A DNA stretch of 64,000 nt, taken from assembly GCA_964567265.1 (NCBI GenBank), contig CAZMLK010000001.1:395723-459722 (forward strand). Reading direction: 5' to 3'. Within the stretch, counting starts at the first letter, position 1. Each line of letters starts with the position of its first letter. A model generated the notes under the pieces. The model was not told where the DNA came from and searched no databases. It worked only from the letters and a program-made list of their open reading frames with translations. A program made the position numbers and the translations under genes. This document shows, piece after piece, positions 9,748 to 32,300 of the stretch. The stretch comes from an uncultured Candidatus Saccharibacteria bacterium (GTDB lineage: Bacteria > Patescibacteriota > Minisyncoccia > Phycocordibacterales > UBA12088).

Positions 9748-9776
9748 ACCGCAGGCTCTCGCCTGCGGTTTTTTGC
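9748..9776 (+). terminator. rho-independent terminator of rpmA
   Basis: accgcaggc-tctc-gcctgcggt hairpin followed by TTTTTTG. Confidence 0.8.
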
Positions 9777-9788
9777 ATATGCTTATCA

Positions 9789-9826: not shown

Positions 9827-9846
9827 TGAGACCTCCTAGGAGGTCT

Positions 9847-10179: not shown

Positions 10180-10239
10180 AGGAACGATTCATTGAAATAT
10201 AAACACGTATATACAGCAGTGTCAATGTATCAATTTTTG

Positions 10240-10273
10240 ACGAAATAAGAAACCGTGGCTTTGTCTGCCACGG
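10240..10273 (-). terminator. terminator for 10283..10609 gene
   Basis: ccgtggc/gccacgg hairpin then TTTCTTATTTCG on the minus strand. Confidence 0.5.
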
Positions 10274-10282
10274 CGCTTCTCG

Positions 10283-10609: not shown

Positions 10610-10658
10610 CTTGAAGCACGACCGTCAATCGAGCTGTTCGAGAACTGTAGATGCCTTG

Positions 10659-11102: not shown

Positions 11103-11167
11103 ATGTGGTGATTGTATAGAACAGAGCCCCCGGATGCAACGCATCCGGGGGCTCTGTGTGGATCTGC

Positions 11168-12457: not shown

Positions 12458-12550
12458 AGGCGAACACTCTCGTCAATTTGCGTGGAGTCGGGAAAACGCG
12501 TTGTCCTTCGATTTTGAATCACGCTATACTGAAGTTCTAATGAATTCGAA

Positions 12551-13465
12551 ATGATCACGAGGAACACGTACAAGAAGCTGTTGTGGATCGATCTCGAATC
12601 GCCGACTGCGGAGGAAGTGAAGGAAGTGATGGGGGAATTCTCGCTCGATCCCATGATCGCGGACGAGCTTCTCTTCCCCAGCCTGAAACCGAAAGTCGAG
12701 ATCGGAGGTGACTACCTGTATCTCGTGCTCCATTTCCCTGCTCTCAAGCACAGCCATAAGAGCGGGACTGCGCAGGAGATCGATTTCATCGTCGGCGAAT
12801 CATTCGTGATCACGACCCATTACGACACCATCGACCCCCTCCACAAGTTCGCGAAGATCTTCGAGGTGAATTCGATACTCGACCGGAGCGACATCGGCAC
12901 GAATGCCGGATATCTCTTCTACTACATGCTCAAGAAGCTGTACCAGTCCTTGGACCACGAGCTTGAATACATTTATGATGCGCTTCTTACTGCCGAGGCA
13001 GGCATATTCGAAGGACAGGAGAAACAGATGGTCCGGAAGCTCTCGCTCGTGAGCCGTGACCTCCTCAATATGCGCCAGGCGCTCGTGGGACACGCAGACA
13101 TCCTCCGCTCGCTCGAGCAGAGCGCGCCCGAGATATTCGGGAAGTCCATCACGAAGCGTATCCGCGACATCTCGACCGAGTATTACCGGATCGAGAATAC
13201 GATGAAATCCCACTCCGCGCTCCTCCTCGAACTCAGGGAAACGAACAACTCGCTGGTCTCGACGAAGCAGAACGAAGTCATGAAGACCTTCACCATCATG
13301 GCGTTCACGACGCTGCCGCTTTCCCTGATTGCAGCGGTGTTCGGCATGAACACGCAGTATACGCCGGTCTCCGGGCATCCATTTGACTTTTGGATCATCG
13401 TCGCCATGATGGTGGTAACGGCGCTTGCCTTCTTCGGATACTTCCGGCACAAGGGCTGGCTCTAA
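12551..13465 (+). CDS. corA: CorA-family magnesium/cobalt transporter
   Basis: C-terminal two TM helices with the GMN motif (AVFGMNTQY). Confidence 0.85.
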   Translation: MITRNTYKKLLWIDLESPTAEEVKEVMGEFSLDPMIADELLFPSLKPKVEIGGDYLYLVLHFPALKHSHKSGTAQEIDFIVGESFVITTHYDTIDPLHKFAKIFEVNSILDRSDIGTNAGYLFYYMLKKLYQSLDHELEYIYDALLTAEAGIFEGQEKQMVRKLSLVSRDLLNMRQALVGHADILRSLEQSAPEIFGKSITKRIRDISTEYYRIENTMKSHSALLLELRETNNSLVSTKQNEVMKTFTIMAFTTLPLSLIAAVFGMNTQYTPVSGHPFDFWIIVAMMVVTALAFFGYFRHKGWL

Positions 13466-13497
13466 GCCGGACCTGTAGGCGCTGACCCACCCTCCCG

Positions 13498-14970
13498 ATG
13501 TTTTTCCTATCACTCGACAAGCAAACGCCCCCGCCACCCCCTCCGAAACCGCCCCTGCGGCTCTGGAACACCCTTTCGGCTGCCAAGGAGATCTTCGTCC
13601 CGATCCGCGGCCCCAAGGTCACGATGTACAACTGCGGCCCCACGGTGTACGACCATCAGCACATAGGCAACCTGAAACCGTATGTCTTCGCGGATGTGCT
13701 CCGGCGCACGCTCGAATACAACGACTTCGAGGTGAAGCAGGTCATCAACATCACGGATGTAGGGCATCTCGTTTCCGACGCTGACGACGGCGAGGACAAG
13801 CTCGAGAAAGGCGCGAAGAAATTCGGGCTCACCGCGCAGGCGCTCGCGAAGCAGATCACTGTTGAATATAAGGACGACCTCGAGAAGGTCGATATCAAGA
13901 CGAAAAAAATTCAATTCACGAAGGCCACCGATTATATCGGTGAGCAGATCGCGCTCGTGCAGACGCTTGAAGAAAAAGGCTACACGTACCGCACCGACGA
14001 CGGCATCTATTTCGACACCTCCCGCTTCCCTTCGTACGGCAAGCTTGGCAATATCCACATCGAGGGTTTGAAGCCGGGTGCGCGCGTCGCTGGAGGCGAG
14101 AAGCGGCATCCGACCGATTTCGCGCTCTGGAAATTCTCAGCGAAAGGCGAGAAGCGTCAACAGGAATGGAAATCGCCATGGGGCATCGGCTTCCCGGGTT
14201 GGCACCTCGAATGCACCGCGATGATCTTCGCCGAGCTCGGCCGCCAGATCGATATTCATACCGGCGGCATCGACCACATACCGGTCCACCACAACAACGA
14301 GATCGCGCAAGCGGAGGCGGCGACCGGCAAGCAGTACGTGAAGTACTGGCTCCACAACGCATTCATCACGATCGAGGGCAAGAAGATCTCGAAGTCTCTC
14401 GGGAACACCATCCTTCTCCGCAATATCACTGACCGCGGCCTGAATCCGCTCGCCTATCGCATGTGGCTCCTCGGCGGGCACTACCGTTCGCCGATGAATT
14501 TCACTTGGGAAGCCGTGGAGGGTGCGAATACCGCGCTGTTGAAGCTGCATCGGTATTTCGTTGACGAGCTTCCCTCCCGCGCTGGCGGCAGCGTTGACGC
14601 TTCATACCAACTGCGGTTTCAGGAGGCTGTCAATGACGATCTTGATACGCCGAAAGCGCTCGCACTCTTGTTTGAGCTCGTGAAGGACGATTCCGTCACG
14701 GAAGCCGACAAGCGGGCGACTATCCTCGACTTCGACCGCGTGCTCGGCATCGGATTCATCGAGGGAAGGAAGAAAATGAAGGATGCCCTTTCGATCAACG
14801 TCCTCAGAGAAGGCGACATCCCGAAAGATATTCAGGGACTCATCACTGAGCGTGAAGCGGCACGTGCCGCAAAGAACTGGATGGAAGCCGATCGCCTCCG
14901 CGACCAGCTCGAACGGAAAGGATACACCGTCACGGACACGCCGAAAGGTTCCATGGTCGAGAGGGCTTGA
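13498..14970 (+). CDS. cysS: cysteinyl-tRNA synthetase
   Basis: MYNCGPTVYDHQHIGN (HIGH region) and KISKSLGN (KMSKS) class-I motifs; Zn-binding Cys pattern. Confidence 0.9.
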   Translation: MFFLSLDKQTPPPPPPKPPLRLWNTLSAAKEIFVPIRGPKVTMYNCGPTVYDHQHIGNLKPYVFADVLRRTLEYNDFEVKQVINITDVGHLVSDADDGEDKLEKGAKKFGLTAQALAKQITVEYKDDLEKVDIKTKKIQFTKATDYIGEQIALVQTLEEKGYTYRTDDGIYFDTSRFPSYGKLGNIHIEGLKPGARVAGGEKRHPTDFALWKFSAKGEKRQQEWKSPWGIGFPGWHLECTAMIFAELGRQIDIHTGGIDHIPVHHNNEIAQAEAATGKQYVKYWLHNAFITIEGKKISKSLGNTILLRNITDRGLNPLAYRMWLLGGHYRSPMNFTWEAVEGANTALLKLHRYFVDELPSRAGGSVDASYQLRFQEAVNDDLDTPKALALLFELVKDDSVTEADKRATILDFDRVLGIGFIEGRKKMKDALSINVLREGDIPKDIQGLITEREAARAAKNWMEADRLRDQLERKGYTVTDTPKGSMVERA

Positions 14971-15111
14971 GCCGGCATCTTTCCTGCCGTATGGTGCGAG
15001 GGCAGGAATCCGAACGAACAAGCGTACTTTGTCGCTTGGACTTCCCAATGTTCTGCCGAGGTCGTTTCCTGCGCAACGGTCACGTACGCTTCAGAGGACT
15101 CCTGCACTCCT

Positions 15112-15139
15112 CCCGTCTGCATGCATGCAGCGAGTTTTT
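15112..15139 (+). terminator. terminator of cysS (14-bp palindrome ctgcatgcatgcag + TTTTTTG)
   Basis: Palindrome followed 4 nt later by a T-run. Confidence 0.55.
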
Positions 15140-15278
15140 TGTTTGAAATTCTTGACAGGTTCCACGGATTCCGGCATGGTTGGTAGCGGAGGGTGCGGTT
15201 ACATTCTTGACGCAGGTTTTTGAATGTTGCACTACCGCACCTTCCATATCGATCTTGTTGGCGTTTCCTCCCGACTTC

Positions 15279-15306
15279 GCCCGGCGCTTCGCGCCGGGCT
15301 TTTATA
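15279..15306 (+). terminator. second terminator in cysS-dnaB spacer
   Basis: gcccggcgc-ttc-gcgccgggc hairpin + TTTTATATT. Confidence 0.6.
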
Positions 15307-20022: not shown

Positions 20023-22734
20023 TTACGCTTCCGTAGCCTTTCTGCCAAAAAAAAGCAATTTTGTCGTCTCGATCGTCGCAAGGTTGAAAAACCCGATGCC
20101 AGCAAGGATGAGCACATCCGAATGCGAGAGCGGCACGAGATGGAGGAGGTGCGAAAGCGCGGGGATATTGAGGGCGCCGAGGAGCGCAGCGAAGCTCGCG
20201 GCGAGCGCCAGGAGAAGGAATCTATTCGAGAATATATTGATACGCCAGAGTGGCTGGCTGAGGCTCTTCATCGAGAACGCGAAGAAGATGGAATCGAGCG
20301 AGAGCGATATGAACATGATGGTCCGGATCTCCTCCTCCGGCATGCCTGTGAGCACGAGATAGATGTAGAGCGCGACCAGGAAGCTGCCGGAAATGAGGCT
20401 CGCGAGGATGATGAGCTTTTTCAAAGCAGGCGTCACGAGCGCGTTCTTAGAACGGGATCGCGGCTTGCGGCGCATGATTCCCTTCTCAGCCGGCTCGAAT
20501 GCGAATGCGAAATTCATAAGCCCTCCTTCGATGATATTGGTCCAGAGGAGCTGGGTCGGCAGGATCGGCAGCGGCGCCGCGAGCACCAAGGATCCCGTAA
20601 TGAGGAAGATGCTGCTGAAATTCGTCGCCAGCATGTAGGCAAAGATCTTGCGGAGGTTGTCGACGATACGGCGCCCTTCTTCGATCGCCGCGACCATGAT
20701 CGAGAAGCTGTTATCGAGGAGGATGAGATCGGATGCCTCTTTCGCGACTTCCGTACCGCTCCCGACCGCGACGCCGATGTCGGCGCTCCGGAGCGCAGGC
20801 GCGTCGTTGATGCCGTCTCCCGTCATCGCGACCACCTCGCCGGCATTCTTGAGGATGCGCACGATGCGGAGTTTCTGTTCTGGCGTCACGCGCGCGAACA
20901 CCTGCGCTTCACGGAGCGCGCGGAGGAGCGCCTCATCATCCATCTCCTCGAGCTTGGTGCCGGTGTACGATGAGAATTCCCCCTCCGCGACGCCCGCGTC
21001 GCGCGCGATCGCGCGAGCGGTCTCCTCGTTGTCGCCCGTGAGCATGATCACCGTCGCCCCCGCGCCCTTCACGGTCTTGATCGCTTCCGGCACGTCCTTG
21101 CGGATCGGATCGTGGAACGCCAGGAGGCCGACGAACGTGCTCCCATTGGTCAGCTTGTGATGCTCCTCGTCATCCTTTTCCGGAATCTTGTGCCAGGACA
21201 CTTCCTTGTACGCGACCGCGATGAAGCGCATGCCTTCGCGGCTGAGCGAGAGCTGTACCTGCTCGAATTGCCCGCGATCGTCACCCGTCATCGGGACCGC
21301 CTTTCCCTCGCGGTACACGTATTCAGCCCGCTCGAGGAATGCCTCCGGCGCACCGGTCATGATGAGCCGGCGCTCCTTTCCTTTCTGCTCATTGAGCGAC
21401 GCGCCGAACCGCCTCGAAGATTCGAAATGGAGGAAGTCTACTCGCTTCTGCTCGGCATGGAGGCCAGGCTGGGTGATTCCCTCCTTGAGGCCCGCATGCA
21501 ATATCGCTTTCTCGATGGGCCGGCCGTGGATGATGAATTTCGCTTCCCCTTCCTTCGCCTCGATGCCTGGATTCTCGAACTCCTCGATGAACGCGTCAGA
21601 TCCGAGGACTGCCATTCGGAGAAGATCCTTTGCATCTTCTTCCCACGCTTCGCCCGGGGCATGCGCGCGTGATTCGAGCGTGTAGACGGATGCCAGATCC
21701 ATGCGGGCTTCAGTCAGCGTGCCGGTCTTGTCAGTAAGGATCACCGTCGTCGCGCCGAGCGTCTCTGCCGCGAGCATGTTCCTCACTAATCCGCCGCGGC
21801 GGAGGATCGCTTCCATGCCGATCGCGAGCACTGCCGTGACTGCAGCAGGAAGGCCCTCGGGCACGACGGCAACAGCAATCGCGATCGCGATGAAGAGCAT
21901 CTCGATGAGCGGCTCGCCGCGCAGCAGCCCGAGGATGAAGATGACGGCGATGAGCACGACGACCAGGGATACGAGCATCGAAGCGATATGGTGGAGATTT
22001 TCCTGGAGCGGCGTCCGGCGCGTATCCGCGGACCCGAGCTCGCGCGCAATCGCGCCGACTTCCGTCTGCATGCCGACCGCGACCGCGACACCGAGGCCGG
22101 AACCGCCGACCACGAGCGTATTCGCGTATGCCATGTTGAGGCGTTCGGCGAGCGGCAGAGTATTCTCAAGCACTGCCGGATCCTTGGAGACCGGCAGCCA
22201 TTCGCCCGAGAGCGAAGCTTCGTTGACGGAGAGCGTGTGCACTTCAATCAACCGTACATCAGCGGGCACCGTATATCCGGCTTCCAAAACAACGATATCC
22301 CCGACGACCACTTCTTCAGAAGGAATGGTGACCTTCTCGCCATCGCGAATGACGATGGCGCGTTTGATCTCGGATGAACTGAGGAGCTGGAAGGCGCGGC
22401 TCGCCCGTCCCTCCTGGAAGAGCCCGATGCCGACATTGAGGATGAGCGCCGCGAAGATGACCGCACTGTCGGAAGTCTCATGGAGAAGGAGCGTCGCGAA
22501 GCCGGCAACCAGGAGCACTGCCGCGAGCGGATTCTCGAGCTGGCGGAGCACGCGATGGCCAGCGGTATCGGTATTCGTCGAGGTAAGGACGTTCCTCCCG
22601 AACGCTTCACGGAGCGTGGCGACCTGTGCATCGCTCTGGCCGGTCTCCGGGCTCACCTTGAAACGCGACAGCAGCGCGTCAACCGGCTCCGCGTGAGCAG
22701 GCGCTCCTTCCAGTGCATCTGTGCCTTTCGACAT
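20023..22734 (-). CDS. P-type (P2-like) cation-transporting ATPase
   Basis: DKTGTLT phosphorylation site, TGDN, GDGINDAPAL hinge, 8-10 TM helices; 903 aa. Confidence 0.9.
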   Translation of the reverse strand: MSKGTDALEGAPAHAEPVDALLSRFKVSPETGQSDAQVATLREAFGRNVLTSTNTDTAGHRVLRQLENPLAAVLLVAGFATLLLHETSDSAVIFAALILNVGIGLFQEGRASRAFQLLSSSEIKRAIVIRDGEKVTIPSEEVVVGDIVVLEAGYTVPADVRLIEVHTLSVNEASLSGEWLPVSKDPAVLENTLPLAERLNMAYANTLVVGGSGLGVAVAVGMQTEVGAIARELGSADTRRTPLQENLHHIASMLVSLVVVLIAVIFILGLLRGEPLIEMLFIAIAIAVAVVPEGLPAAVTAVLAIGMEAILRRGGLVRNMLAAETLGATTVILTDKTGTLTEARMDLASVYTLESRAHAPGEAWEEDAKDLLRMAVLGSDAFIEEFENPGIEAKEGEAKFIIHGRPIEKAILHAGLKEGITQPGLHAEQKRVDFLHFESSRRFGASLNEQKGKERRLIMTGAPEAFLERAEYVYREGKAVPMTGDDRGQFEQVQLSLSREGMRFIAVAYKEVSWHKIPEKDDEEHHKLTNGSTFVGLLAFHDPIRKDVPEAIKTVKGAGATVIMLTGDNEETARAIARDAGVAEGEFSSYTGTKLEEMDDEALLRALREAQVFARVTPEQKLRIVRILKNAGEVVAMTGDGINDAPALRSADIGVAVGSGTEVAKEASDLILLDNSFSIMVAAIEEGRRIVDNLRKIFAYMLATNFSSIFLITGSLVLAAPLPILPTQLLWTNIIEGGLMNFAFAFEPAEKGIMRRKPRSRSKNALVTPALKKLIILASLISGSFLVALYIYLVLTGMPEEEIRTIMFISLSLDSIFFAFSMKSLSQPLWRINIFSNRFLLLALAASFAALLGALNIPALSHLLHLVPLSHSDVLILAGIGFFNLATIETTKLLFFGRKATEA

Positions 22735-23269: not shown

Positions 23270-23308
23270 AGAAAAAGCCCCCGCGCCTTCGGCGCGGGGG
23301 CTTTTTCT
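23270..23308. terminator. bidirectional terminator (gcccccgcgcc-ttcg-gcgcgggggc flanked by A- and T-runs)
   Basis: Perfect GC hairpin with a ttcg loop, between convergent genes. Confidence 0.8.
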
Positions 23309-23324: not shown

Positions 23325-25730
23325 CTATGGAGTCGAAACTGCCCTGAGCATCGGCTCGATGCGGTCAGCAACCCGTGCATACCCGCTGGCATTCGGATGC
23401 ACCAAGTCGCTGCTCGTGAGGAACGGATTTCCCAGGACTCCTTTCAGGATATTCTCGACATACGCCGACTGCGTATCTCGTGCCACGTCCTTATACCGAT
23501 CATTGAGCGACGGGTTGAGGATGCCTCCGCCGAGACCGACCACGAGTACAACTGCTCCCTTCGCCTGGATGCGCTCCACAATGGTCTGCAGGTTCGAGAA
23601 TGTCTCAGCCCGTGAGACCGCGGGCACGCTGAGATTCGCGCCGATGCGGACAAGGATCAAGCGTATGCGTTCAGCAAAAGCCTTGTCGCCAATCGCGAGC
23701 GCTTCCTCATACATCCGGTGAAGCTCATCGTTCGCTCCGAGGAAGACAATGACGACTTTCGGATTCTTGGAAAGGACATCAGCGTCGAGGCGCGCGAGCG
23801 CCATCGAGGTATCGTTGCCGGACACGCCTGCATTCTGGATCGGCTTGCCGAGACGCTGCGAGAGCACGCTTACGTAGTCCTTTCCGGCAGGAGCACCGAC
23901 ACCGGAGGTCAGGCTGTCTCCGAGCGCGATAATATTCTGACCTTTTGATGGGTAGTTCTTGACCGGCCAGGGATTGCCTCCCGGATTCCCGCCGGTACCA
24001 CCCGTGGTTCCCCCGGTAGTACCGGTCGTTCCAGTAGTCCCTGTGGTGCCGGTCGTGCCTGTAGTTCCTGTAGTGCCCGTTGTCCCCGTGCTTCCGCCGC
24101 CGCCAACACGAATGCTGCCAGGACTCGCTCCAACTCGAGTGAACCCATCGTTGATGAATACGCGTGCCTCATAGATGCCATCAGCAAGTGAAGGAAAGGT
24201 CATCGATCCGGATGTTCCACCAGCTGGGATGTACTGCCATGCCGTGTACGAACGATCACCCTGCCCTGCTGCATAGATTCCCACCCAGTCTTTCGCATTG
24301 CGGCTCTGAGGTGCCTGCCAGTTCACGGTCACCGCGCCTCCAGACGGAACGGTTGCTGCTGCAAAGGCGACGGCATATCCGCCGGTACCGCCCGTCGTTC
24401 CTCCTGTGGTCCCTCCGGTCGTACCTGTGGTTCCCGTAGTACCGGTAGTTCCTGTCGTGCCTGTGGTTCCGGTAGTGCCCGTCGTTCCTGTGGTGCCAGT
24501 TGTCCCGCCCGTGGTGCCTCCCGTTCCTCCCATCGTAAATGCATTCGAGACCGCGACATGCGCACCCCCGCTGGTCACAAAATATCGTGCCTCATACACG
24601 CCCGGCTGGAAGCTTGTGAAATCAACGGCACCATCAGCAGATCCGATCGGAACATACTGCCACTTCCAATAGCCGCCATCGCTTCCAGAATTCGGCGTAT
24701 AGATGCCGATCCAGTCATGCGCTCCGACTGCAGGCGTGTGATAGGTCACATGCGCAACGCTGCCATTCACAGTAACTGAGAGCGAATATGAACCTCCGCC
24801 GCCGGTCGTTCCTCCTGTAGAGCCGCCCGTCGTACCTGTGGTTCCCGTAGTGCCCGTTGTCCCTGTCGTGCCAGTGGTCCCCGTCGTTCCAGTAGTACCA
24901 GTTGTGCCGGTTGTGCCCGTTCCGCCACCACCGCCAACACTGACAGAGCCAGGACTGGTCGCTGCACGCGTATATCCATTATTCAAATACAACCGCGCTT
25001 CATACTGGCCGTTCGCAAGTCCCGGAAAGCTGAGCGTTCCAGATGTCGCACCGCCGATGTACTGCCATGCCGTATACGAGCGATCTCCCTGGCCAGTCGC
25101 GTAAATGCCGACCCAATCTTGCGTACCGCGACTTGCGGGCGCCTGCCAGTTGACCACGACAGCACCTCCAGTCGGGACCGAAGCAGATGCGAACGAGACC
25201 GCATATCCTCCGGTACCGCCGGTGGTCCCGCCGGTAGTACCTCCCGTGGTCCCAGTTGTGCCGGTCGTTCCAGTCGTCCCCGTGGTACCGGTCGTGCCTG
25301 TTGTCCCAGATGTACCCGTCGTCCCAGTGGTTCCCGTAGTGCCTCCGGTTGTTCCCGTCCCTCCTCCGCCACCGTACGTGACCGAATTCGAGACTGCGAC
25401 ATGGCTATAGCCATTGGCGACAAGATACCGTGCTTCGTATGTGCCCGGATTGACGTTTAAGAAATCAATCGCTCCGTCTACCGCACCAGCCGGAACGTAC
25501 TGGTACAGGATGAATCCATGGTTGTCTGCTCCCACCGGAAAGAGTCCAATCCAATCCTGGTTGCCGGCCGTCGGCGCATGGTAGGTAACATGAATAATCC
25601 CGCCGGTGACAGTTGCATTCAACGTATAGCTTCCAACCTGCGCGTCAGCCCTTTCCACGGCTCCAAACCCAATGAGGGCGATCGCGGCTGAAAGAAGGAT
25701 TGTTGCCCTGATGGTGGTATGCATGGTCAT
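23325..25730 (-). CDS. secreted multi-domain protein: signal peptide, 4x ~90-aa repeat domain separated by (Thr-Gly)n linkers, C-terminal SGNH/GDSL hydrolase
   Basis: Signal peptide MTMHTTIRATILLSAAIALIG. Four repeats, each with W[IV]G[IL][FY]...[QK]Y...YEAR[YLV], alternating between two subtypes. TGTTGTTGTT linkers. C-terminal GDSLTSG, GANDE and DLVHPN motifs of the SGNH hydrolase family. Confidence 0.8.
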   Translation of the reverse strand: MTMHTTIRATILLSAAIALIGFGAVERADAQVGSYTLNATVTGGIIHVTYHAPTAGNQDWIGLFPVGADNHGFILYQYVPAGAVDGAIDFLNVNPGTYEARYLVANGYSHVAVSNSVTYGGGGGTGTTGGTTGTTGTTGTSGTTGTTGTTGTTGTTGTTGTTGGTTGGTTGGTGGYAVSFASASVPTGGAVVVNWQAPASRGTQDWVGIYATGQGDRSYTAWQYIGGATSGTLSFPGLANGQYEARLYLNNGYTRAATSPGSVSVGGGGGTGTTGTTGTTGTTGTTGTTGTTGTTGTTGTTGGSTGGTTGGGGSYSLSVTVNGSVAHVTYHTPAVGAHDWIGIYTPNSGSDGGYWKWQYVPIGSADGAVDFTSFQPGVYEARYFVTSGGAHVAVSNAFTMGGTGGTTGGTTGTTGTTGTTGTTGTTGTTGTTGTTGTTGGTTGGTTGGTGGYAVAFAAATVPSGGAVTVNWQAPQSRNAKDWVGIYAAGQGDRSYTAWQYIPAGGTSGSMTFPSLADGIYEARVFINDGFTRVGASPGSIRVGGGGSTGTTGTTGTTGTTGTTGTTGTTGTTGGTTGGTGGNPGGNPWPVKNYPSKGQNIIALGDSLTSGVGAPAGKDYVSVLSQRLGKPIQNAGVSGNDTSMALARLDADVLSKNPKVVIVFLGANDELHRMYEEALAIGDKAFAERIRLILVRIGANLSVPAVSRAETFSNLQTIVERIQAKGAVVLVVGLGGGILNPSLNDRYKDVARDTQSAYVENILKGVLGNPFLTSSDLVHPNASGYARVADRIEPMLRAVSTP

Positions 25731-25857
25731 GATAGTGATGACTCGTATGATAACGGATTCTTTCTAAAGGGATTATGAAGACAGAAGTGGGTTACCCCGG
25801 CCGAGCTGCCTGATTTTTGCTCGGGCACACAATACAACGTTTTTGAGGGATTGCATA

Positions 25858-25892
25858 GGAAAAGAGGCCGCGCGAAGCGCGGCCTCTTTTTG
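25858..25892 (-). terminator. terminator for beta-helix gene (agaggccgcgc-gaa-gcgcggcctct)
   Basis: GC hairpin with T-runs on both strands. Confidence 0.7.
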
Positions 25893-25911
25893 CTACATCG
25901 CACCAATCCAA

Positions 25912-28848
25912 TTATCGCATCACTCCCCGCGTCAGCGTCCCAAAATAGCCAGTACCCGCAGAGAGTCCTGCTGGTTCGAGGATATCTGCGACATGCGCGT
26001 TCTGAAAGAGGATGAGGGCTGCCTTAGTAGCAGGTCCGAAGAAATCAGTCTCGAATCCTGGCGACCCTGCTCCTACAGCGGACACTGTAAATCCATGTAC
26101 ATTCAAGTACATCTGAAGCTGACGGACATCTTCCCCGCGAGATCTGACTCTGAGATTGCGCGGGAAAGTCACTGACGTCATGGCAGGCGTCGTTGTTGAT
26201 ACCGAAAGATTTCCAAACACTTCATTGAGTTTCGCCAGCGTCAGCGGGCCGACGACACCATAGCCGGTCGTGCTCGGTGTGCCCGTGGTGACGATACCGT
26301 ACTTCGCTTGGAATCGTCGTACTGCGGCTTCCGTCAGCGCACCATAGAATCCGTTGACAATGGCTTCCGGGTACAGGGCAGCGTCTGAGGCAAAGAGTTG
26401 TTGCAAGGTGCGGACGTCTGGGCCCTGCATGCCGGGGAAGAGCGCGTTCGTGAAGATTGGACTCCTGCCTGTCGACGGCATCAACGGGGCAGGTTGTTGA
26501 TTGGAAGTACCAGGAATGGTCACCGCAGCTGAACAGACTGAGAAGGCGTTGCAGTATTTCACATAGAGCGTGCTTGTAGTATCAGGCCATGGGAGCGAAC
26601 TGGTTGCATTCACGTAGGTTGCAGTAGCGAACGAAGGGTCCGTGGAAATGGCAATCTTCGTGATATCCGTTCCGAATGAGAATGTGAGGATCCGTCCTGA
26701 CGGGATTGGCGTCGTTGACGTGGCAGCAAATCCTCCAGATGGACCCGTAGGGACTGGTGCACTTCCACCTCCTCCGCCCGAGGGTGGCAGGACGATATTC
26801 ACCGTTCGCGTTGACACCGCACTGTTCCCTGCCGTATCGGTTGCCGTGTAGGTAATGCGGTATGTTCCGACCGTGCCCACCGTCACTGTGTCCCCACCTG
26901 TGGTGACCGACACTGTTCCATCGACATCATCGGTCGCCGATGCGCCCGGGTCCGCAAAGCCCTGGCCGATGGTTTGAGTGATGGAGGCAGCTCCCGAAAG
27001 CGTAATGGTCGGCGCGACCGAGTCGGTATATTCGTACGCACCGATATCGCAGACACCCTGACGACTGACACCATTTTTGTCTGTCGTTGGGCACAGAGAA
27101 TCCGTGCCCGCATTGATGGCTGGGGAAGATGCGAGGAGGCGGTAATCACCCCCTGACACATCAGCCAATACGGGATCACTAGTCAAAGAATGCGACCCTA
27201 GAGAAAATCCCGACCCAGAGACTGACGCCGTTGCCGTATGTGCAATGAGGCTATAGTCTTCACTCACACTCGTCGCACCGGTTGTTTTCGAGATACCCGT
27301 CGCAAATCCATATATCAAATTGTTACGCAACGTAACGTTCCCTGTTGATTGGAGCGACATCGCTACGCCTGACTGCGACGGATTGATGAGGGTGTTGTTA
27401 TAGAACGAGAGCGCGGCCGCATCAAGCAACGTTACCAGTGCATTTGTTCCTGCGACTGTGGTGTATCCGAATACGTTTCCATACGCGATAATTGACGAGT
27501 TTTCAATATTTGTGACTGCACTTTTTTTATTGCCCCAAGCATACGAATTGGTAAGCCTGCCCCCTGACGTCTCGTGCCATGAGAATCCGTCACCATCGGA
27601 ACCAGATCCATCGACTCCATTGTTTGTAGATGTAGCATGATCGATGTTGATTGTGGGTCCATTATGAAATCCAAATCCATCATTCGTGTTGCTATCTGCG
27701 GTTGAATTTAAAATCGTTACGGTACCGCCAGTACCCGCGACAGCAACCCCGTTGGAACCAGTGACCGTGCCATTACTGTTGAATGTCGAACCGGACAATG
27801 TAAGGGTGTCACTTGATCCTCCCATGGTGACATTGATGCCAGCAAGACCGTTTGAACCCACGGTGAGATTTGAAAATCTTGACCCAGTTGACCCTGCCAG
27901 CATCAATATGCCGTCAGACGTATTGTTGGAGACCGTCGTCGTAGCAATGATTGCATTTGTTGGCTTCGAATCGAATCGGATTCCACGAGCAGTATTCCCA
28001 GTAACGGTCGAGTTTTTAATCGAAATTCCACTTGCGGTATTCAATATATATATTCCGTTCGAGCCGCAGCCCTGAATGGTAACTCCATCAATGACTGCTG
28101 TGGTGACATTATTCAAGATGAGGCAATCTCCTGAACCGCCTGTGATCGTAGAGGAGGTAATGGTGATATTTGAGCCAGCAGCCACAGAACTTCCAAACTT
28201 CATGCCGCTTGTTGAGGCGGTGATCGTGAGGTTTGAAAAAGTATCTCCTTGCGACTTGGTACCATTCAAGTTTATGCCGGTTGTAAAACCACTGACCGTA
28301 ATGTTGTCATATGTGCTCGCGGTACTGGTAGCATTGGTACTGATGACGATGGCCTGCGTTGTTGTGCCGCTAATTGAGAGATGGTTGAAATTAAGTCCGG
28401 TAAACGTACCTGAAAATACAAAGATGCCTGATTCGGACGGACTTCGTAAGACAAGATTTTGAATCGTCAGATACGATGCGCTGTTGCGAATATCGAATAT
28501 CCTATTCTGGCTTCCGGCATTCAGAATGGGATTGGCACCAGTGCCGTATGCATCAAAAACAATTGGATTTCCAGATGTACCCGAATCGTCAAACAGCGTT
28601 ATCTTTATATTTGAGAACGTTTCACCTTTCTTGAATAAAATCTGGTCTCCTGCCACGAAAGTGCGCGCGTTGATTGGTGTAGCCGACTGCCACGGCGTTC
28701 CACTGCTCGTACCATTATTCGAATCGCTGCCAAGAGTGGCGTCCACATAGTATGTCGCCGCGCTTGCCAGCGACGGCACTGCAGTCACAGCAAACAACGC
28801 TATTGCTGCAAATACAAACGCGATGTTTTTTGGGTAATTTTGAGGCAT
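25912..28848 (-). CDS. secreted right-handed parallel beta-helix repeat protein with Ig-like domain and two C-terminal peptidoglycan-binding (PG_binding_1-like) domains
   Basis: Signal peptide. Dozens of degenerate PbH1-like turns (NxxGxGI/NIT/GxS ladder). Ig-like TVSVTTGGDTVTVGTVGTYRITYTATDTAGNS. Two C-terminal repeats of the form G.DVR.LQ..L...G.....DG.FG..T..A...FQ. Confidence 0.8.
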   Translation of the reverse strand: MPQNYPKNIAFVFAAIALFAVTAVPSLASAATYYVDATLGSDSNNGTSSGTPWQSATPINARTFVAGDQILFKKGETFSNIKITLFDDSGTSGNPIVFDAYGTGANPILNAGSQNRIFDIRNSASYLTIQNLVLRSPSESGIFVFSGTFTGLNFNHLSISGTTTQAIVISTNATSTASTYDNITVSGFTTGINLNGTKSQGDTFSNLTITASTSGMKFGSSVAAGSNITITSSTITGGSGDCLILNNVTTAVIDGVTIQGCGSNGIYILNTASGISIKNSTVTGNTARGIRFDSKPTNAIIATTTVSNNTSDGILMLAGSTGSRFSNLTVGSNGLAGINVTMGGSSDTLTLSGSTFNSNGTVTGSNGVAVAGTGGTVTILNSTADSNTNDGFGFHNGPTINIDHATSTNNGVDGSGSDGDGFSWHETSGGRLTNSYAWGNKKSAVTNIENSSIIAYGNVFGYTTVAGTNALVTLLDAAALSFYNNTLINPSQSGVAMSLQSTGNVTLRNNLIYGFATGISKTTGATSVSEDYSLIAHTATASVSGSGFSLGSHSLTSDPVLADVSGGDYRLLASSPAINAGTDSLCPTTDKNGVSRQGVCDIGAYEYTDSVAPTITLSGAASITQTIGQGFADPGASATDDVDGTVSVTTGGDTVTVGTVGTYRITYTATDTAGNSAVSTRTVNIVLPPSGGGGGSAPVPTGPSGGFAATSTTPIPSGRILTFSFGTDITKIAISTDPSFATATYVNATSSLPWPDTTSTLYVKYCNAFSVCSAAVTIPGTSNQQPAPLMPSTGRSPIFTNALFPGMQGPDVRTLQQLFASDAALYPEAIVNGFYGALTEAAVRRFQAKYGIVTTGTPSTTGYGVVGPLTLAKLNEVFGNLSVSTTTPAMTSVTFPRNLRVRSRGEDVRQLQMYLNVHGFTVSAVGAGSPGFETDFFGPATKAALILFQNAHVADILEPAGLSAGTGYFGTLTRGVMR

Positions 28849-28963
28849 GTAACAAATTCAATGAGTAAGCGTTTTGTATTCTCGAAGACGGATTTGAAAC
28901 GTAGTCATTGCCACTGATTCACTATACCAGCTGCATTACGACAGAGGTATTCCGAATGGGGAT

Positions 28964-29012
28964 TACGGCGGAAAAAACGGAAAAAGGCGGCCGCGCTTCG
29001 CGCGGCCGCCTT
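28964..29012 (-). terminator. terminator for 29023..30603 gene
   Basis: aggcggccgcg-cttc-gcgcggccgcct hairpin followed on the minus strand by TTTTTCCGTTTTTTCC. Confidence 0.8.
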
Positions 29013-29022
29013 TCGCCTCCAC

Positions 29023-30603
29023 CTACATCGTTATCTGCACCGCATTCCCCGCCTGATCGTATCCATTCGCCTTGAAGTAACGGATCTCGTAGCTGCCGGG
29101 AGTGACATTCTGGAATGTGTAGGTGCCCGATGGGCCGGTCGCATACGACCATGCAAGATACGAGCGGTTGCCTGCCCCGGTCGCATAGAGCCCGATCCAG
29201 TCGGTCGTCGTGAACGCAGTACTTGGGCCCACCCAGCTCGCGATGATTGTATTTCCAGATCTCGATGCGGAGAGTGAATATCCGGCTGCGGCAGAAAGAT
29301 CAGCTCGTGCGACTGCCGCCTTCGCCTGTACGGTGATTTCCGGAGTAACTGCAACTGATGTGTATTTATTATTCTTCAGATACCGGATCTCGAAGGTGCC
29401 GGTGCGGTCGAGCGTGAATGTCATGTCGCCGCTCGCAGCATCCCCGGTGTATTTCCAGGTCCCGTAGCTCCGGTTCGACGCGCCCTTCTCATAGATCGCG
29501 ATCCAGTCCTGCGTATTCGACGAGCCTCCTGGCGTCTGCCAGTGCACGGTCACGGTATCACTAACTCGCGGGGTCTGAGAGGAAATCGTGAGCGAGTATC
29601 CGGCTGCCGCTGCAGCGGAGCCCAGTGTATAGGTCGCTGAGGTCGCACGCCGGGTGTAGCCGTTGTTCTCGAAGGTACGCGCCTCATATGCGCCGGGCTC
29701 GAGCGAGTCTGTATTGAAACTGAGCGTTCCCGAATTGCCGGATGGAAGATACTGCCACAGAAGATAGGAGGAATCAGCAGCGCCGACCGGATAGAGCCCG
29801 ACCCAATCCCGCGAACTGCGGCCGGTCGGCGCCTCGAACCGCACCGAGAGCGTATTCCCGGAAATGCCATTGATGGCGAGTGCGTAGTTCCCTACGGGTG
29901 CAGCCGCAGCGCTTCCGGTCGTACCGGTGGTTCCGTCTTCTGTTCCCGTCCCGCCACCACCAGTCACGATCTCGCGCCACGGACCGCTGGGCACATTGCC
30001 CGCGTCCACGAACCGCCAAGACACCAGCATCTGGTCGCCGCCGTTCAAGCAGTCGCGCATGGCGGGAGAGAGATCGATGCCGATTGATTGGCGCGGTCCC
30101 GCGCTTCCGAATACGTACGCAATATCATCCTCACCGTATGGTCCGACATCTTCCCACTGGCCGTAGCAGGTCGCACCGTTCGAGGTGACCGCCACCCAAT
30201 GATTCTTGAGCTGCGAAACGCTCTTGCTCGCGCCGGATTGATACCACGGGATCTGGCTCGCGTTCGATTTCTGGGATCCGTTATTGCCGATGTCGTTATA
30301 CGGAAGCGCGATATAGAACGGATTCTCCTTCGGAGTGAACGCGCACGGGCGGTAGCCGCATCGATTGTCGGGATCGTCTTCCCCGCCGTAATGAGTTGCC
30401 CAGAGCTCGTCCCATGCGCTCGGGACGTTCGAGATGAAGCCGTTGTCTGAGGTCGCGCCTTCGCCTACCCAGAAGACAGTCGCGTTGACCGTTTTCGGGT
30501 TCGTTTCGGTCGCGGTGATGGCTGCTGCCGGGTATGGATAGGCTGCTCCGAGTAGAAGGAGGAATACGGCTAGCGATGCGGCTCTAATGCCCTTCCGATT
30601 CAT
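29023..30603 (-). CDS. secreted protein: N-terminal double-psi beta-barrel-like (RlpA/expansin-type) domain + 3 copies of the same ~90-aa repeat domain found in 23325..25730
   Basis: Signal peptide. N-domain with YGGEDD...C...C.F......LPY...HWVAVT.NGATCYGQWEDVGP pattern. Three repeats with WVGLY/WIAIY/WIGLY ... YEAR/FEIRY. Confidence 0.7.
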   Translation of the reverse strand: MNRKGIRAASLAVFLLLLGAAYPYPAAAITATETNPKTVNATVFWVGEGATSDNGFISNVPSAWDELWATHYGGEDDPDNRCGYRPCAFTPKENPFYIALPYNDIGNNGSQKSNASQIPWYQSGASKSVSQLKNHWVAVTSNGATCYGQWEDVGPYGEDDIAYVFGSAGPRQSIGIDLSPAMRDCLNGGDQMLVSWRFVDAGNVPSGPWREIVTGGGGTGTEDGTTGTTGSAAAAPVGNYALAINGISGNTLSVRFEAPTGRSSRDWVGLYPVGAADSSYLLWQYLPSGNSGTLSFNTDSLEPGAYEARTFENNGYTRRATSATYTLGSAAAAAGYSLTISSQTPRVSDTVTVHWQTPGGSSNTQDWIAIYEKGASNRSYGTWKYTGDAASGDMTFTLDRTGTFEIRYLKNNKYTSVAVTPEITVQAKAAVARADLSAAAGYSLSASRSGNTIIASWVGPSTAFTTTDWIGLYATGAGNRSYLAWSYATGPSGTYTFQNVTPGSYEIRYFKANGYDQAGNAVQITM

Positions 30604-30674
30604 GAAGGGGTTACTTTACAATTTTTCGGGGGTGGGGGCAAGGGAGAAATACAAAATCACAGTACCTTGAAGCA

Positions 30675-31538
30675 TCACTGATTTCCAGCTTCAAGCTGTG
30701 GATCGAGATCGTCCATGATGTACCGCATGAATTGTTTTCCCAGTTCAGTGAGAACCTGTTGATCATCGTTGAATGGAGACTTGAGCGTCTTAGCTTGGGG
30801 ACCGGCTTTCTTTTTTGCGACTCTTCGTCGCCACTGCCCATCCGCATCCGATTCTCGAGGTTGGCGCATAACGTCAGCCATTTGGAGTTCGTGGAAAAGG
30901 AACTTGAACAAATCGGCCTTCGCCGAGTCATCCCTTGGTATCTCACCGAATATCTCCGTTGCGATATCGTAAGAAGATATACCCGGATTCTGGTACACCA
31001 GCCTGAGTATCTGGAAATGAAGCTCGTGGAATCGCTCCATAAATTCCACAAAGAGGCGGACCACATCGTCATCCACAACGCGCATGCCAGCGGCGTTAGT
31101 GATGAGTTTTCGCAAACTCTCCCTTTTCTCGGTGGTATCGGCGCCGTCCCAGACGCGGAAAGTCTTACGCACAAGATTCAGATATTCTGTCGACTCTATT
31201 CGCTCTTCCGTCTGAATTCCAAATATCTCCAAACGCTCAAAGACACGACGCATATCCGCTAGTAACTCGCGAAGCTTCAACTCGTGCTCTTGTACCCACA
31301 AGAAAAGGAGCTTGTTCGTTATGCCTTGCTCCTTCTCGGCTGATAGAGTGGCAGCAGCACTTAAGACGCTTCCAACCCACGGAATACCACTCAACGCCGC
31401 CATTGCAACGCGTCCGTATTTCTTCCAATTTCCACCCGTTAGTTGCTCAAGAATAGCCCGCTCTTTTTCATTCAATACAACTGCTTCGATGCGTTCCGGG
31501 AGTTTGTGGTCTGCCATGGGAATCAGTCTACTCCTCAT
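30675..31538 (-). CDS. hypothetical protein (visibly lower GC than surroundings)
   Basis: 287-aa ORF, AT-richer codon usage than neighbours, lies between the surface locus and tRNA-Glu. No motif recognised. Start may be the second Met (MADHKL). Confidence 0.5.
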   Translation of the reverse strand: MRSRLIPMADHKLPERIEAVVLNEKERAILEQLTGGNWKKYGRVAMAALSGIPWVGSVLSAAATLSAEKEQGITNKLLFLWVQEHELKLRELLADMRRVFERLEIFGIQTEERIESTEYLNLVRKTFRVWDGADTTEKRESLRKLITNAAGMRVVDDDVVRLFVEFMERFHELHFQILRLVYQNPGISSYDIATEIFGEIPRDDSAKADLFKFLFHELQMADVMRQPRESDADGQWRRRVAKKKAGPQAKTLKSPFNDDQQVLTELGKQFMRYIMDDLDPQLEAGNQ

Positions 31539-31758
31539 ATATTTATCAGCAAATTTCTCGTAACATGTAACGAAATATGATTTTGTGCCCCCGTCTAGCT
31601 TCAGTGTGGTCGTCGGTCCTTACAGGACCAGTATCCCGATTGGATTTTTTAGTGCGGCCATAAATGGCCGACAAAAAATGCTCAATCGGGCTTCGACTCC
31701 CGGACGAAGTCTCCCCCGGAGACTTCTTAGGGTCCCAACTTTCGCTACGCTCAATTTG

Positions 31759-31830
31759 TGACCCTACCGGGAGTCGAACCCGGCTTTAGAGCTTGAGAAG
31801 CTCTCGTCCTAACCGATAGACGATAGGGCC
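31759..31830 (-). tRNA. tRNA-Glu (anticodon CUC), CCA not encoded
   Basis: Reverse complement GGCCCTATCGTCTATCGGTTAGGACGAGAGCTTCTCAAGCTCTAAAGCCGGGTTCGACTCCCGGTAGGGTCA. 7-bp acceptor (one G-U), D-arm with GG, anticodon stem AGAGC/GCTCT with loop TTCTCAA, T-arm CCGGG-TTCGACT-CCCGG. Confidence 0.85.
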
Positions 31831-31902: not shown

Positions 31903-32205
31903 TCATTGCTTTGCTGGTTCGACAAGCTCAAGCGCGTCTGGGTGATACGTCTTATCTCGGCCTGACAAATGTACCTGTCCGCGCGCGTCTACCGACTTTA
32001 CCTGGTACTCCTCCCATCCGCGCGCATCTACCAGGCGGACGATATCTCCCTTCTTGAACGTAACCACGACCTTGTTGGCTTTTTGGCCGTCAGCACGCGT
32101 CCGCTGGCGTTTTCTTGTGTCGCGCAAAATGTCAGAGATCGTCTCATTAATGATTCTCTGATGTACCGCTCCTGGCCGCCGCCTGTCTCCGCTGGCGATG
32201 TCCAT
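31903..32205 (-). CDS. hypothetical small basic protein
   Basis: Start trimmed to MDIASG, because the longer ORF would run through the upstream gene's terminator hairpin. KOW/SH3-like VVVTFKKGDIVRLVD segment. Confidence 0.4.
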   Translation of the reverse strand: MDIASGDRRRPGAVHQRIINETISDILRDTRKRQRTRADGQKANKVVVTFKKGDIVRLVDARGWEEYQVKSVDARGQVHLSGRDKTYHPDALELVEPAKQ

Positions 32206-32257
32206 CGAACCTCCATTCGTTGATGCTTTCGATATTAAGATGCATATATTGAGATGT

Positions 32258-32300
32258 GTCAAATATAAGACCCCCGCGCGCACCTCGGTGCGGCGGGGGT
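32258..32300 (-). terminator. terminator for 32309..32635 gene
   Basis: Imperfect GC hairpin cccccgcgcgcacc/ggtgcggcggggg followed on the minus strand by TCTTATATTT. Confidence 0.5.

Follow-up and report, generated by a model that had tools for sequence, protein, structure and literature searches.

Predicted Secreted Envelope Proteins With SKICH-Like Beta-Sandwich Arrays in a Patescibacteria Genome

Three consecutive minus-strand genes of a member of Patescibacteria (CPR, Parcubacteria-like) were evaluated in a 64-kb window, i.e., the whole stretch of DNA that was analysed. The genes, each with its own terminator, probably encode multi-domain envelope proteins exported by the Sec route; two of these proteins (P1 and P3) are built on arrays of a SKICH-like repeat of about 90 aa. 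According to sequence profiles and a structural model, this repeat is predicted to be an eight-stranded beta-sandwich; within the SKICH / HECW-N / purple-acid-phosphatase-N (Fn3-like) superfamily, it forms a bacterial branch that is probably extracellular. The locus thus appears fairly ordinary, with secreted envelope proteins carrying relatives of a known beta-sandwich, and its least-described part is the double-psi-beta-barrel (DPBB)-like domain of P3.

Locus Layout and Export Signals

The coordinates of the three genes agreed exactly between the ORF listing and an earlier note on this DNA, which had called the products giant, an overstatement for proteins of 526–978 aa. The layout was as follows.

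23270..23308, bidirectional: terminator hairpin common to P1 and the convergent YqeY gene; 18-bp stem with 12 GC pairs, flanked by a T-run on either side
23325..25730, minus strand: P1, 801 aa; signal peptide, four SKICH-like repeats, C-terminal predicted SGNH esterase
25860..25891 (about), minus strand: P2 terminator-like hairpin, GAGGCCGCG-CTTCG-CGCGGCCTC, then TTTT; 9-bp GC stem
25912..28848, minus strand: P2, 978 aa; signal peptide and right-handed beta-helix (aa ~31–560; Pfam/NCBIfam)
28982..29014, minus strand: strong intrinsic terminator after P3; 15-bp stem, 11 GC pairs, T-rich tail
29023..30603, minus strand: P3, 526 aa; DPBB-like domain behind the signal peptide, then three SKICH-like repeats after a short Gly/Thr linker
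30675..31538, minus strand: 287-aa ORF between tRNA-Glu and P3; GC 0.497, GC3 0.535
31758..31830, minus strand: tRNA-Glu (CTC), a landmark that lies downstream of MurF and is conserved in the relatives L001, L019 and L020

The N-termini of P1, P2 and P3 each contained a basic n-region and a 12-aa hydrophobic core (mean Kyte-Doolittle 2.5–2.9), followed by AxA-type cleavage sites (ADA↓Q, ASA↓A and AAA↓I, respectively). Sec-type signal peptides, also proposed in the earlier note, were called by eye and from hydrophobicity only, and the three proteins are predicted to be Sec-exported. A terminator-like hairpin was located behind each gene, as the note had claimed; the one behind P2 was read by eye because its tract of only 4 T was passed over by the terminator scanner.

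The distance from the P3 start codon to the 3' end of tRNA-Glu was 1,155 bp, and the GC content of the intervening 287-aa ORF was 0.497 versus about 0.565 for the whole window, in agreement with the low-GC gene and the spacing of about 1.2 kb described earlier. This ORF had sub-threshold Pfam/NCBIfam matches only (weak winged-helix/HTH, E 0.015–0.09); it is strain-specific and lies outside the three-gene block.

The Repeat and Its Superfamily

25641..25730, minus strand: P1 signal peptide, aa 1–30, ending ERADA↓Q; core ILLSAAIALIGF, mean Kyte-Doolittle 2.66; read from sequence
25371..25637, minus strand: P1 repeat 1, aa 32–120; repeat HMM E 3e-25
24936..25208, minus strand: P1 repeat 2, aa 175–265; repeat HMM E 2e-32
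24531..24794, minus strand: P1 repeat 3, aa 313–400; repeat HMM E 1e-21
24102..24380, minus strand: P1 repeat 4, aa 451–543; repeat HMM E 2e-30
29620..29895, minus strand: P3 repeat 1, aa 237–328; repeat HMM E 2e-29
29326..29604, minus strand: P3 repeat 2, aa 334–426; repeat HMM E 9e-32
29026..29283, minus strand: P3 repeat 3, aa 441–526; repeat HMM E 1e-24

The family-built HMM returned exactly four copies in P1 and three in P3 (per-copy E 1e-21 to 1e-32), the numbers counted in the note, and found no others when the window was translated in all six frames. Across the seven-copy alignment, Y, P, D-W, Y, G, F, G, E and R were invariant. The P1 repeats were spaced by Thr/Gly linkers of 40–56 aa; repeats 2 and 4 were 69% identical, and the ABAB order of the copies resulted from an 828-nt duplication (repeat family D4).

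The Pfam SKICH model scored 37.7 bits for whole P1 and 39.8 bits for whole P3 against a cutoff of 23.4 bits. Single copies matched it at E about 2e-3 in six of seven cases; none of the seven reached the cutoff (best 18.5 bits). The next Pfam matches of P1 after SKICH were HECW_N and fn3_PAP. Moreover, profile A2 (38 sequences) aligned the full SKICH domain of NDP52 (positions 10–86; 23 bits, i-E 5.5e-4), with DWIGIF paired to DWIGLY and YYQFCY to YEARY. P1 repeat 2 was the copy modelled (AF2 pLDDT 97.3).

At E<=1e-3, the repeat was found in 9,632 representative proteins, in arrays of up to 13 copies, and its usual setting was tandem arrays on secreted enzymes. Among 49 sampled carriers, SKICH was matched in 31, HECW_N in 27, Peptidase_S8 in eight and GDSL in four. 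No dedicated Pfam or NCBIfam model for the repeat was found.

The earlier note had proposed that the repeat was a novel module without known relatives. The carriers are indeed named "hypothetical" or after another domain in the sources, precomputed Pfam matches are "faint" or absent, and no mention of a bacterial SKICH-like domain was found in the literature. Nevertheless, sequence and structure converged on SKICH, HECW_N and fn3_PAP; therefore the repeat is not unplaceable, a family without relatives is highly improbable, and a new fold or superfamily was rejected. The beta-sandwich guessed in the note was correct. Its novelty claim, which the note itself had made to depend on the lack of a known Ig-like fold, does not stand, since the SKICH/Fn3-like match is to such a fold.

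Domains of P1, P2, and P3

23328..23942, minus strand: P1 SGNH/GDSL esterase domain (predicted), aa 597–801; blocks GDSLT, AGVSGN, GAND, DLVHPN
P2 aa 568–607: choice-of-anchor-Q motif (Pfam/NCBIfam)
P2 aa 615–685: Bact_surface_Ig-like domain (Pfam)
P2 aa ~690–800: stretch without domain assignment
25921..26436, minus strand: P2 C-terminal PG_binding_1 pair, aa ~805–976; Pfam PF01471, 59 bits, two stretches
29956..30495, minus strand: P3 DPBB-like domain, aa 37–216; invariant motifs QWED.GP and AGID.SPA

The SGNH/GDSL assignment of the P1 C-terminus was borne out by Pfam Lipase_GDSL_2 (81.4 bits, aa 602–786), and the GDS / G / GAND / DxxH blocks were legible. Among solved structures, the lysophospholipase L1-like esterase 9otv was the best relative (E 1.8e-19), and a TesA-type SGNH esterase is predicted. 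P2 matched its earlier description as a beta-helix protein (Pfam Beta_helix) ending in two peptidoglycan-binding repeats, and the latter also had endolysin wall-binding-domain matches in PHROG. Likeness to GH136 lacto-N-biosidase was confined to the N-terminal cap, and a search for close P2 relatives elsewhere found none.

The AF2 model of the P3 N-domain (pLDDT 90) gave kiwellin, loosenin, cerato-platanin, PA4485, barwin and expansins as the leading Foldseek matches. The best 23 matches, and the majority of the top 50, were all of the DPBB fold; the full-length TM values of 0.36–0.42 were low because of large insertions. The model thus indicates that the domain takes the DPBB fold, consistent with the expansin/RlpA-like fold suggested in the note. 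For the family of this domain (85 homologues with domain matches at E < 1e-30), no match to DPBB_1 or another Pfam model was found in any of 25 members, and the P3 domain found no match in a PDB sequence search. The domain represents a distinct, unnamed family without a Pfam model. Its homologues carried SLH, PG_binding_1, GH114 and DUF2334 as partner domains.

Synteny and Base Composition

The gene order P3–P2, together with the start of P1, was common to only one relative, L001, with about 89% DNA identity. The note had suspected horizontal acquisition at tRNA-Glu, and the evidence was mixed. A recent genomic island integrated at the tRNA-Glu 3' end would be in line with the beginning of the block 1.16 kb from that end, with L019 and L020 (family-level relatives), where MurF–tRNA-Glu is kept and other genes lie beyond, and with the tRNA-touching 1.1-kb segment (30645–31754), which matches nothing in L001 and is replaced there by a different 160-aa ORF. 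The GC3 values were 0.514 for P2 (z = -3.1), 0.535 for the 287-aa ORF (z = -2.8) and 0.586 for P1 (z = -2.0), all lower than the 0.724 +/- 0.068 of the core; only P2 and the tRNA-adjacent ORF were atypical. However, P3 was core-like in GC3 (0.685) and codon usage. Neither an integrase nor another mobility gene was found, no second copy of the tRNA-Glu 3' end was present in the 64 kb even with three mismatches, no flanking direct repeats (att) were found, and PHROG matches were at the domain level only. Furthermore, a positional orthologue of P1 adjoined YqeY–RmuC in the more distant relative L022, with neighbours 70–77% identical, indicating vertical inheritance of the P1 end. Such an island is therefore quite improbable.

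Proposed Role of the Three Proteins

The preferred reading is that of exported envelope proteins with a terminator behind each gene. The repeat arrays may form a rigid stalk or spacer and might also bind polymers, with the P1 copies joined via flexible Thr/Gly linkers. They would keep a head with catalytic or wall-directed activity at a distance from the cell, namely the TesA-type SGNH esterase at the P1 C-terminus and the RlpA/expansin/kiwellin-like DPBB domain at the P3 N-terminus. The P2 beta-helix may be a glycan-active enzyme or an adhesin, tethered non-covalently to peptidoglycan by its PG_binding_1 pair. Wall or glycan material would be the likely substrate.

Cooperation of P1–P3 in a dedicated host-cell-wall engagement system of an episymbiotic CPR cell is unlikely. 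In such a system, host peptidoglycan would be loosened or cut by the DPBB head, de-O-acetylated by the SGNH domain and gripped by P2, with the SKICH-like arrays as reach modules that bind the host surface. This agrees with the affiliation to Patescibacteria, the exported appearance of all three proteins, the gene order kept in L001, and a VanY peptidase beside the P1-like gene of L023. The note's description of all three as wall-directed was supported for P2, by its PG_binding_1 repeats, and for the P3 DPBB family, by its co-occurrence with SLH, PG_binding_1, GH114 and DUF2334. The case for a dedicated system was weak: the three genes are terminated separately, 14 other genomes with the DPBB domain had no homologue of P1 or P2 within 10 kb of it, the L022 orthologue of P1 adjoins housekeeping genes, and P2 lacks close relatives in the search above. 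The same domains would also suit a cell that remodels its own wall. It is possible, though doubtful, that the proteins are unrelated scavenging exoenzymes, neighbours by chance, that feed an auxotrophic CPR cell: a lipase/esterase (P1), a polysaccharide-active beta-helix (P2) and a glycan-loosening protein (P3), with inert spacer repeats. The separate terminators, the lysophospholipase/TesA-type relatives of the P1 domain, and the arrays on subtilases, GDSL lipases and PPC/GEVED-type secreted proteins of many bacteria argue for it, whereas the PG_binding_1 pair and the wall partner domains of the DPBB family suggest that the wall, and not free substrates, is the target.

Comparison With Known Systems

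Eukaryotic SKICH domains are single-copy, cytosolic and adaptor-protein-binding. Compared with SKICH (Pfam PF17751; NDP52/CALCOCO2, TAX1BP1, SKIP), the proteins here have a signal peptide, three to four tandem copies (up to 13 in relatives) and a hydrolase fusion, and single copies score under the Pfam cutoff. The N-terminal Fn3-like domain of the plant purple acid phosphatase PPD1 (PDB 3zk4; fn3_PAP, PF17808) is single and sits on a metallophosphatase; the score here was far below the cutoff (19 versus 33 bits). The N-terminal domain of HECW1/2 (Pfam PF16562; PDB 2lfe) is cytosolic and belongs to a eukaryotic ubiquitin ligase, and P1, at 24.1 bits, fell short of the cutoff of 26.7. The P3 N-domain shares the fold of the DPBB proteins (RlpA/PA4485, EXLX1, kiwellin, cerato-platanin, barwin, loosenin) in Foldseek and carries D-x-G-P and [IL]DLSP-type motifs, and hhalign matched it weakly and locally to the "ALDLSP...WRVV" region of the bacterial expansin EXLX1. 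However, its length of about 180 aa is almost double that of the usual core, with large insertions. The Ig/Fn3-like modules of secreted bacterial enzymes (Big, fn3, PKD, CBM-type X) follow the same plan of tandem beta-sandwiches between the signal peptide and the catalytic head, with low-complexity linkers and many different enzyme partners, whereas the repeat described here belongs to another sequence family.

Organization of the locus and predicted export signals

The locus encodes three clustered envelope proteins with predicted export; the cluster is specific to its lineage, and the parts of the proteins are of known kinds. The genes of these putative secreted wall proteins, P1, P2 and P3, were neighboring ORFs, and their coordinates and minus-strand orientation were exactly those of the earlier note. 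The genes and the hairpins downstream of them were as follows:

23325-25730, minus strand, P1, ORF of 801 aa
25912-28848, minus strand, P2, ORF of 978 aa
29023-30603, minus strand, P3, ORF of 526 aa
31758-31830, minus strand, tRNA-Glu(CTC), the sole RNA gene found in the 64-kb window
23270-23308, bidirectional hairpin after P1, common to the convergent YqeY gene (terminator scan)
about 25860-25891, hairpin after P2 with a T-run of four T (read in the sequence)
28982-29014, hairpin with T-run after P3 (terminator scan)

The start codon of P3 was 1,155 bp from the 3' end of tRNA-Glu, in agreement with the distance of about 1.2 kb estimated earlier, and the Rfam search of the window returned nothing beyond the tRNA. 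The N-termini of P1, P2 and P3 contained a basic n-region, a 12-residue hydrophobic core (mean Kyte-Doolittle value of 2.5-2.9) and an AxA-type cleavage motif, and the signal peptides previously assigned to all three proteins were therefore also predicted here. A GC-rich hairpin followed by a T-run was located downstream of each gene, indicating that each had its own terminator, as had been claimed. The P2 hairpin was not called by the scanner because its T-run comprised only four T.

The block was flanked on one side by MraZ-RsmH-FtsL-PBP-MurF and tRNA-Glu and on the other side by YqeY, a P-type ATPase and RmuC. The top named relatives of the class-I lysyl-tRNA synthetase (LysRS) in the window belonged to the Candidatus Parcubacteria/Patescibacteria group, with identities of 61-66%. 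A 126-aa ORF between MurF and tRNA-Glu (31903-32283, minus strand) had a weak, sub-cutoff match to the Colicin_E5 ribonuclease domain (E 0.004) and was 90% conserved at 8516-8887 of L001, a locus in a relative's genome.

Domains of the P1 esterase and the P2 beta-helix protein

The C-terminus of P1 was a complete SGNH hydrolase domain. It matched the full Lipase_GDSL_2 profile (PF13472) with 81.4 bits against a cutoff of 32.9, and the catalytic blocks I (GDS), II (G), III (GxND) and V (DxxH) were all found, in the form of GDSLT, AGVSGN, GAND and DLVHPN, respectively. The nearest solved relatives of this domain were esterases of the lysophospholipase-L1/TesA type. P2 contained a right-handed beta-helix (Beta_helix, PF13229, 66.4 bits against a cutoff of 25.9), a choice-of-anchor-Q motif, a Bact_surface_Ig-like domain, a stretch of about 110 residues without assignment and two PG_binding_1 repeats (PF01471, 59.1 bits against a cutoff of 23, in two stretches). 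Hence, the folds assigned earlier, an SGNH hydrolase in P1 and a beta-helix with two peptidoglycan-binding repeats in P2, were borne out by Pfam scores above the cutoff. No close relatives of P2 were found in the metagenome scan, which returned only distant matches to the choice-of-anchor-Q motif.

Two other assignments were rejected. The resemblance of P2 to GH136 lacto-N-biosidase was confined to the first ~80 residues, which form the beta-helix cap. The locus was not read as a prophage because the PHROGs matches were at the domain level only, namely, SGNH domains in tail fibres and PG-binding domains in endolysins.

Synteny in relatives and the origin of the locus

The arrangement of the locus was compared with loci in the genomes of relatives. 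The closest one (L001-L003, about 88-91% identical in DNA wherever segments could be aligned) was collinear with the window through MurF, tRNA-Glu, P3, P2 and the start of P1. The 1.1 kb after tRNA-Glu (window 30645-31754) was swapped for unrelated DNA at L001 9040-9959. This segment of the window contained the following ORF, the counterpart of which in L001 was an unrelated 160-aa ORF:

30675-31538, minus strand, ORF287 (287 aa, between tRNA-Glu and P3), GC 0.497, sub-threshold winged-helix/HTH matches

The 1.1 kb at the 3' side of tRNA-Glu resembles a small site at which cassettes are highly variable, and the low-GC gene noted earlier beside the block was ORF287. In two further loci, L019 and L020 (LysRS 66% and MurF 43% identical), the MurF-tRNA-Glu arrangement was kept and was followed by ParA-like, Fur and YibE_F genes; P1-P3 were absent after tRNA-Glu in both. 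In L021 (LysRS 72% identical), a gene for a 2,491-aa SpvB/RHS-repeat/YD-shell toxin-like protein (9667-15299) was located right after the PBP gene of the division cluster, a position filled in the window by MurF and tRNA-Glu. The interval downstream of tRNA-Glu is read as an accessory region that varies among these small genomes.

At the other end of the block, L022 had a P1 orthologue (47% identical, with three repeats and a GDSL domain) in the same setting as P1 of the window, beside YqeY and RmuC, which were 70% and 77% identical, respectively. This shared syntenic position makes the YqeY-RmuC end of the block look vertically inherited. The 903-aa P-type ATPase that separates YqeY from RmuC in the window (20023-22734) was missing at the same junction in L022 (2174-3607), and a Pur_DNA_glyco gene was located between the P1 orthologue and YqeY there, which indicated that the gene content varies on this flank too.

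The earlier note had suggested that the block was horizontally acquired at tRNA-Glu. The reference for GC3 was a set of 24 core ORFs with a length of at least 300 aa (0.724 +/- 0.068). Relative to this set, the values were low for P2 (0.514, z = -3.1) and ORF287 (0.535, z = -2.8), with P1 at 0.586 (z = -2.0). These values, together with the other genes after the tRNA in L019 and L020, would fit acquisition, and P2 and the tRNA-adjacent ORF287 may be of foreign origin. On the opposite side, the GC3 of P3 was core-like (0.685, z = -0.6), and P1 was syntenic in L022. Moreover, there were no integrase-type matches between tRNA-Glu and YqeY, where the ORFs were P1-P3 and ORF287, no second copy of the 22-nt 3' end of tRNA-Glu in the window even when 3 mismatches were allowed, and no direct repeats flanking the block. 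There is no evidence for a classical tRNA-integrated island. Nor is there evidence for P1-P3 as a conserved functional unit. The case for the dedicated envelope or host-wall system proposed earlier was weak, since no P1 or P2 homologue was nearby in the 14 other genomes with the DPBB (double-psi beta-barrel) domain of P3, and P2 was without close relatives elsewhere.

Copies of the repeat and the P1 linkers

A regular-expression pass and an alignment located seven copies of the ~90-aa repeat, and the Thr/Gly linkers between the P1 copies were mapped on the DNA:

P1 aa 32-120, 175-265, 313-400 and 451-543, repeats of P1
P3 aa 237-328, 334-426 and 441-526, repeats of P3
23985-24105, 24380-24535, 24795-24930 and 25205-25370, four Thr/Gly linkers of P1, (TTG)n

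The family HMM recovered exactly the same seven copies (per-copy E of 1e-21 to 1e-32), consistent with the four copies in the first protein and three in the third counted previously, and found no further copy when the window was translated in all six frames. The residues D-W, Y, G, F, G, E and R were among those invariant in the seven-copy alignment. The copies of P1 were ordered ABAB, and repeats 2 and 4 were 69% identical; this pattern derives from an 828-nt duplication (family D4). The linkers were 40-56 residues long and consisted almost entirely of Thr and Gly. Their DNA had a 9-nt period in which the synonymous codons were varied and shuffled. The linkers may be O-glycosylated stalk segments. 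Such sequences may also account for the exact P1 sequence missing from the protein collection and for the L022 contig ending just upstream of its P1 orthologue.

Family placement of the repeat

The whole-protein scores for SKICH (PF17751), which are sums over the copies, were 37.7 bits for P1 and 39.8 bits for P3 against a cutoff of 23.4. Six of the seven single copies matched SKICH, the best with 18.5 bits (E about 2e-3), below the cutoff. HECW_N and fn3_PAP came after SKICH in the Pfam ranking for P1, and HECW_N (PF16562), the fold of which is similar, did not reach its cutoff (24.1 against 26.7 bits for P1). The score for fn3_PAP (PF17808), the family of the PPD1 N-domain, fell further short (19 against 33 bits). 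The PDB sequence search gave marginal matches with the seven-copy profile and was informative with the profile of A2, a 38-sequence alignment built with full-length repeat copies gathered from homologues. In human NDP52/CALCOCO2, the A2 profile covered the SKICH domain over its entire length (23 bits, i-E 5.5e-4, profile positions 10-86), with DWIGIF on DWIGLY and YYQFCY on YEARY. Both the DWIGIF strand and the C-terminal aromatic strand of the SKICH signature were present, and D-W was invariant in 38 of 38 A2 sequences.

The AlphaFold2 model from A2 was an eight-stranded beta-sandwich (pLDDT 97.3), in line with the beta-sandwich guessed earlier, and it superimposed on a solved SKICH domain. 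The N-domain of HECW2 was the top Foldseek match in the PDB. The three best structural matches were the same three Pfam families that were matched by sequence, and the repeat was hence placed in the SKICH/HECW-N/PAP-N Fn3-like superfamily on the basis of sequence and model. Strict PF17751 membership is not claimed because single copies were sub-threshold and generic Ig-like domains scored close behind. The repeat had been described as unrecognised; the SKICH scores, the NDP52 alignment and the structural matches show that it is related to known families, as a branch of the SKICH/Fn3-like beta-sandwich superfamily that is bacterial and extracellular and occurs in tandem arrays. The eukaryotic SKICH members have a cytosolic adaptor or membrane-localisation role. 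Such a role is disfavoured for the repeat by the predicted signal peptides and the fusion to secreted hydrolases. In the eukaryotic protein P0112 (612 aa, annotated SKICH and CUE), the HMM of the bacterial repeat matched three copies, each with an E-value of about 1e-10; at the sequence level, P0112 is a direct bridge from the bacterial arrays to the eukaryotic SKICH proteins.

Spread and use of the repeat

When 1.84 billion representative proteins were searched exhaustively with HMMER, the repeat was present in 9,632 of them at E<=1e-3 and in 5,457 at E<=1e-10. Tandem arrays occurred in most of the matches listed, with up to 13 copies. In a Pfam scan of 49 repeat proteins, 31 matched SKICH (best 2e-32) and 27 matched HECW_N (best 3e-40), and the partner domains included Peptidase_S8 (8), GDSL lipase (4), PPC, GEVED and fn3. 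The source names were "hypothetical protein", "subtilisin family serine protease" and "VWA domain-containing protein", and the literature searches found no description of a bacterial SKICH-like domain. Hence, the repeat module is widespread and unnamed, yet not a new fold. Typically, the repeated beta-sandwich had a signal peptide on one side and a secreted enzyme on the other, and this setting suggests that the repeat acts as a stalk, a spacer or a binding module. In L023 (721-5467), the P1-like protein P0023 (six repeats and a GDSL domain) was flanked by a gene for a VanY D-Ala-D-Ala carboxypeptidase and by that of a second, 337-aa protein that also contained the repeat.

The main gain is annotation, as a very large "hypothetical" secreted set receives a nameable repeat (SKICH/Fn3-like, an E-set type beta-sandwich). 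On a much broader reading, the arrays, found in about 10,000 bacterial proteins, would bind a specific ligand, either a glycan or a wall polymer, and the SKICH, HECW-N and PAP-N domains of eukaryotes would have originated from this prokaryotic family. In the CPR episymbiont, the arrays would provide reach and binding in a set of proteins for attacking the host wall, with the unnamed enlarged DPBB as its head, a new class of enzyme cleaving or loosening peptidoglycan or glycan. All of these parts holding together is improbable.

The DPBB-like N-domain of P3

The enlarged DPBB-like head of P3 is the element of the locus that has been described least, and it is without a family model:

29956-30495, P3 aa ~37-216, DPBB-like domain of ~180 aa (AlphaFold2 and Foldseek)

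Sequence searches of Pfam, NCBIfam and the PDB gave no match, DPBB_1 (PF03330) included, either with P3 aa 28-216 or with 24 of its homologues. The AlphaFold2 model (pLDDT 90) indicates a DPBB fold, and all of the 23 best Foldseek matches in the PDB were DPBB-fold proteins, including kiwellin, loosenin, cerato-platanin, PA4485, barwin, expansins and the Streptomyces papain inhibitor. The double-psi-beta-barrel-like domain proposed in the earlier note was thus recovered as a fold, without sequence-level membership of a DPBB family. The TM-scores were up to 0.78 for TMt (4avr) and 0.36-0.42 for TMq; the modest whole-domain values were due to the size of the P3 domain, which is about twice that of a minimal DPBB.

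The domain was carried by 85 homologues (each E < 1e-30), and the genomes named for it were those of CPR, Verrucomicrobiota, Proteobacteria and one Woesearchaeota MAG. The genome-contig scan with P3 returned DPBB-domain homologues only, with 41-60% identity and no species-level relative. The domain usually formed the C-terminal half of ~300-aa proteins (homologues P0024-P0110, loci L004-L017). Fusions to SLH, PG_binding_1, GH114 with DUF4214, and DUF2334 in some homologues support a wall or exopolysaccharide context. The domain is conserved and deserves its own Pfam model.

Overall, the earlier observation was confirmed and its interpretation was partly supported. No dedicated system, new fold or mobile island was demonstrated by these data, and P1-P3 are reasonable candidate surface or wall-active factors for CPR biology. 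For the P3 head, the invariant E, D and D and several W of the family suggest an active or binding site. In hhalign, the family had a 32-column local match to B. subtilis EXLX1 at 15% probability, which was taken as a hint only. RlpA and the expansins contain the motifs D-x-G-P and [IL]DLSP, and the invariant motifs of the P3 family, QWED.GP and AGID.SPA, resemble them.
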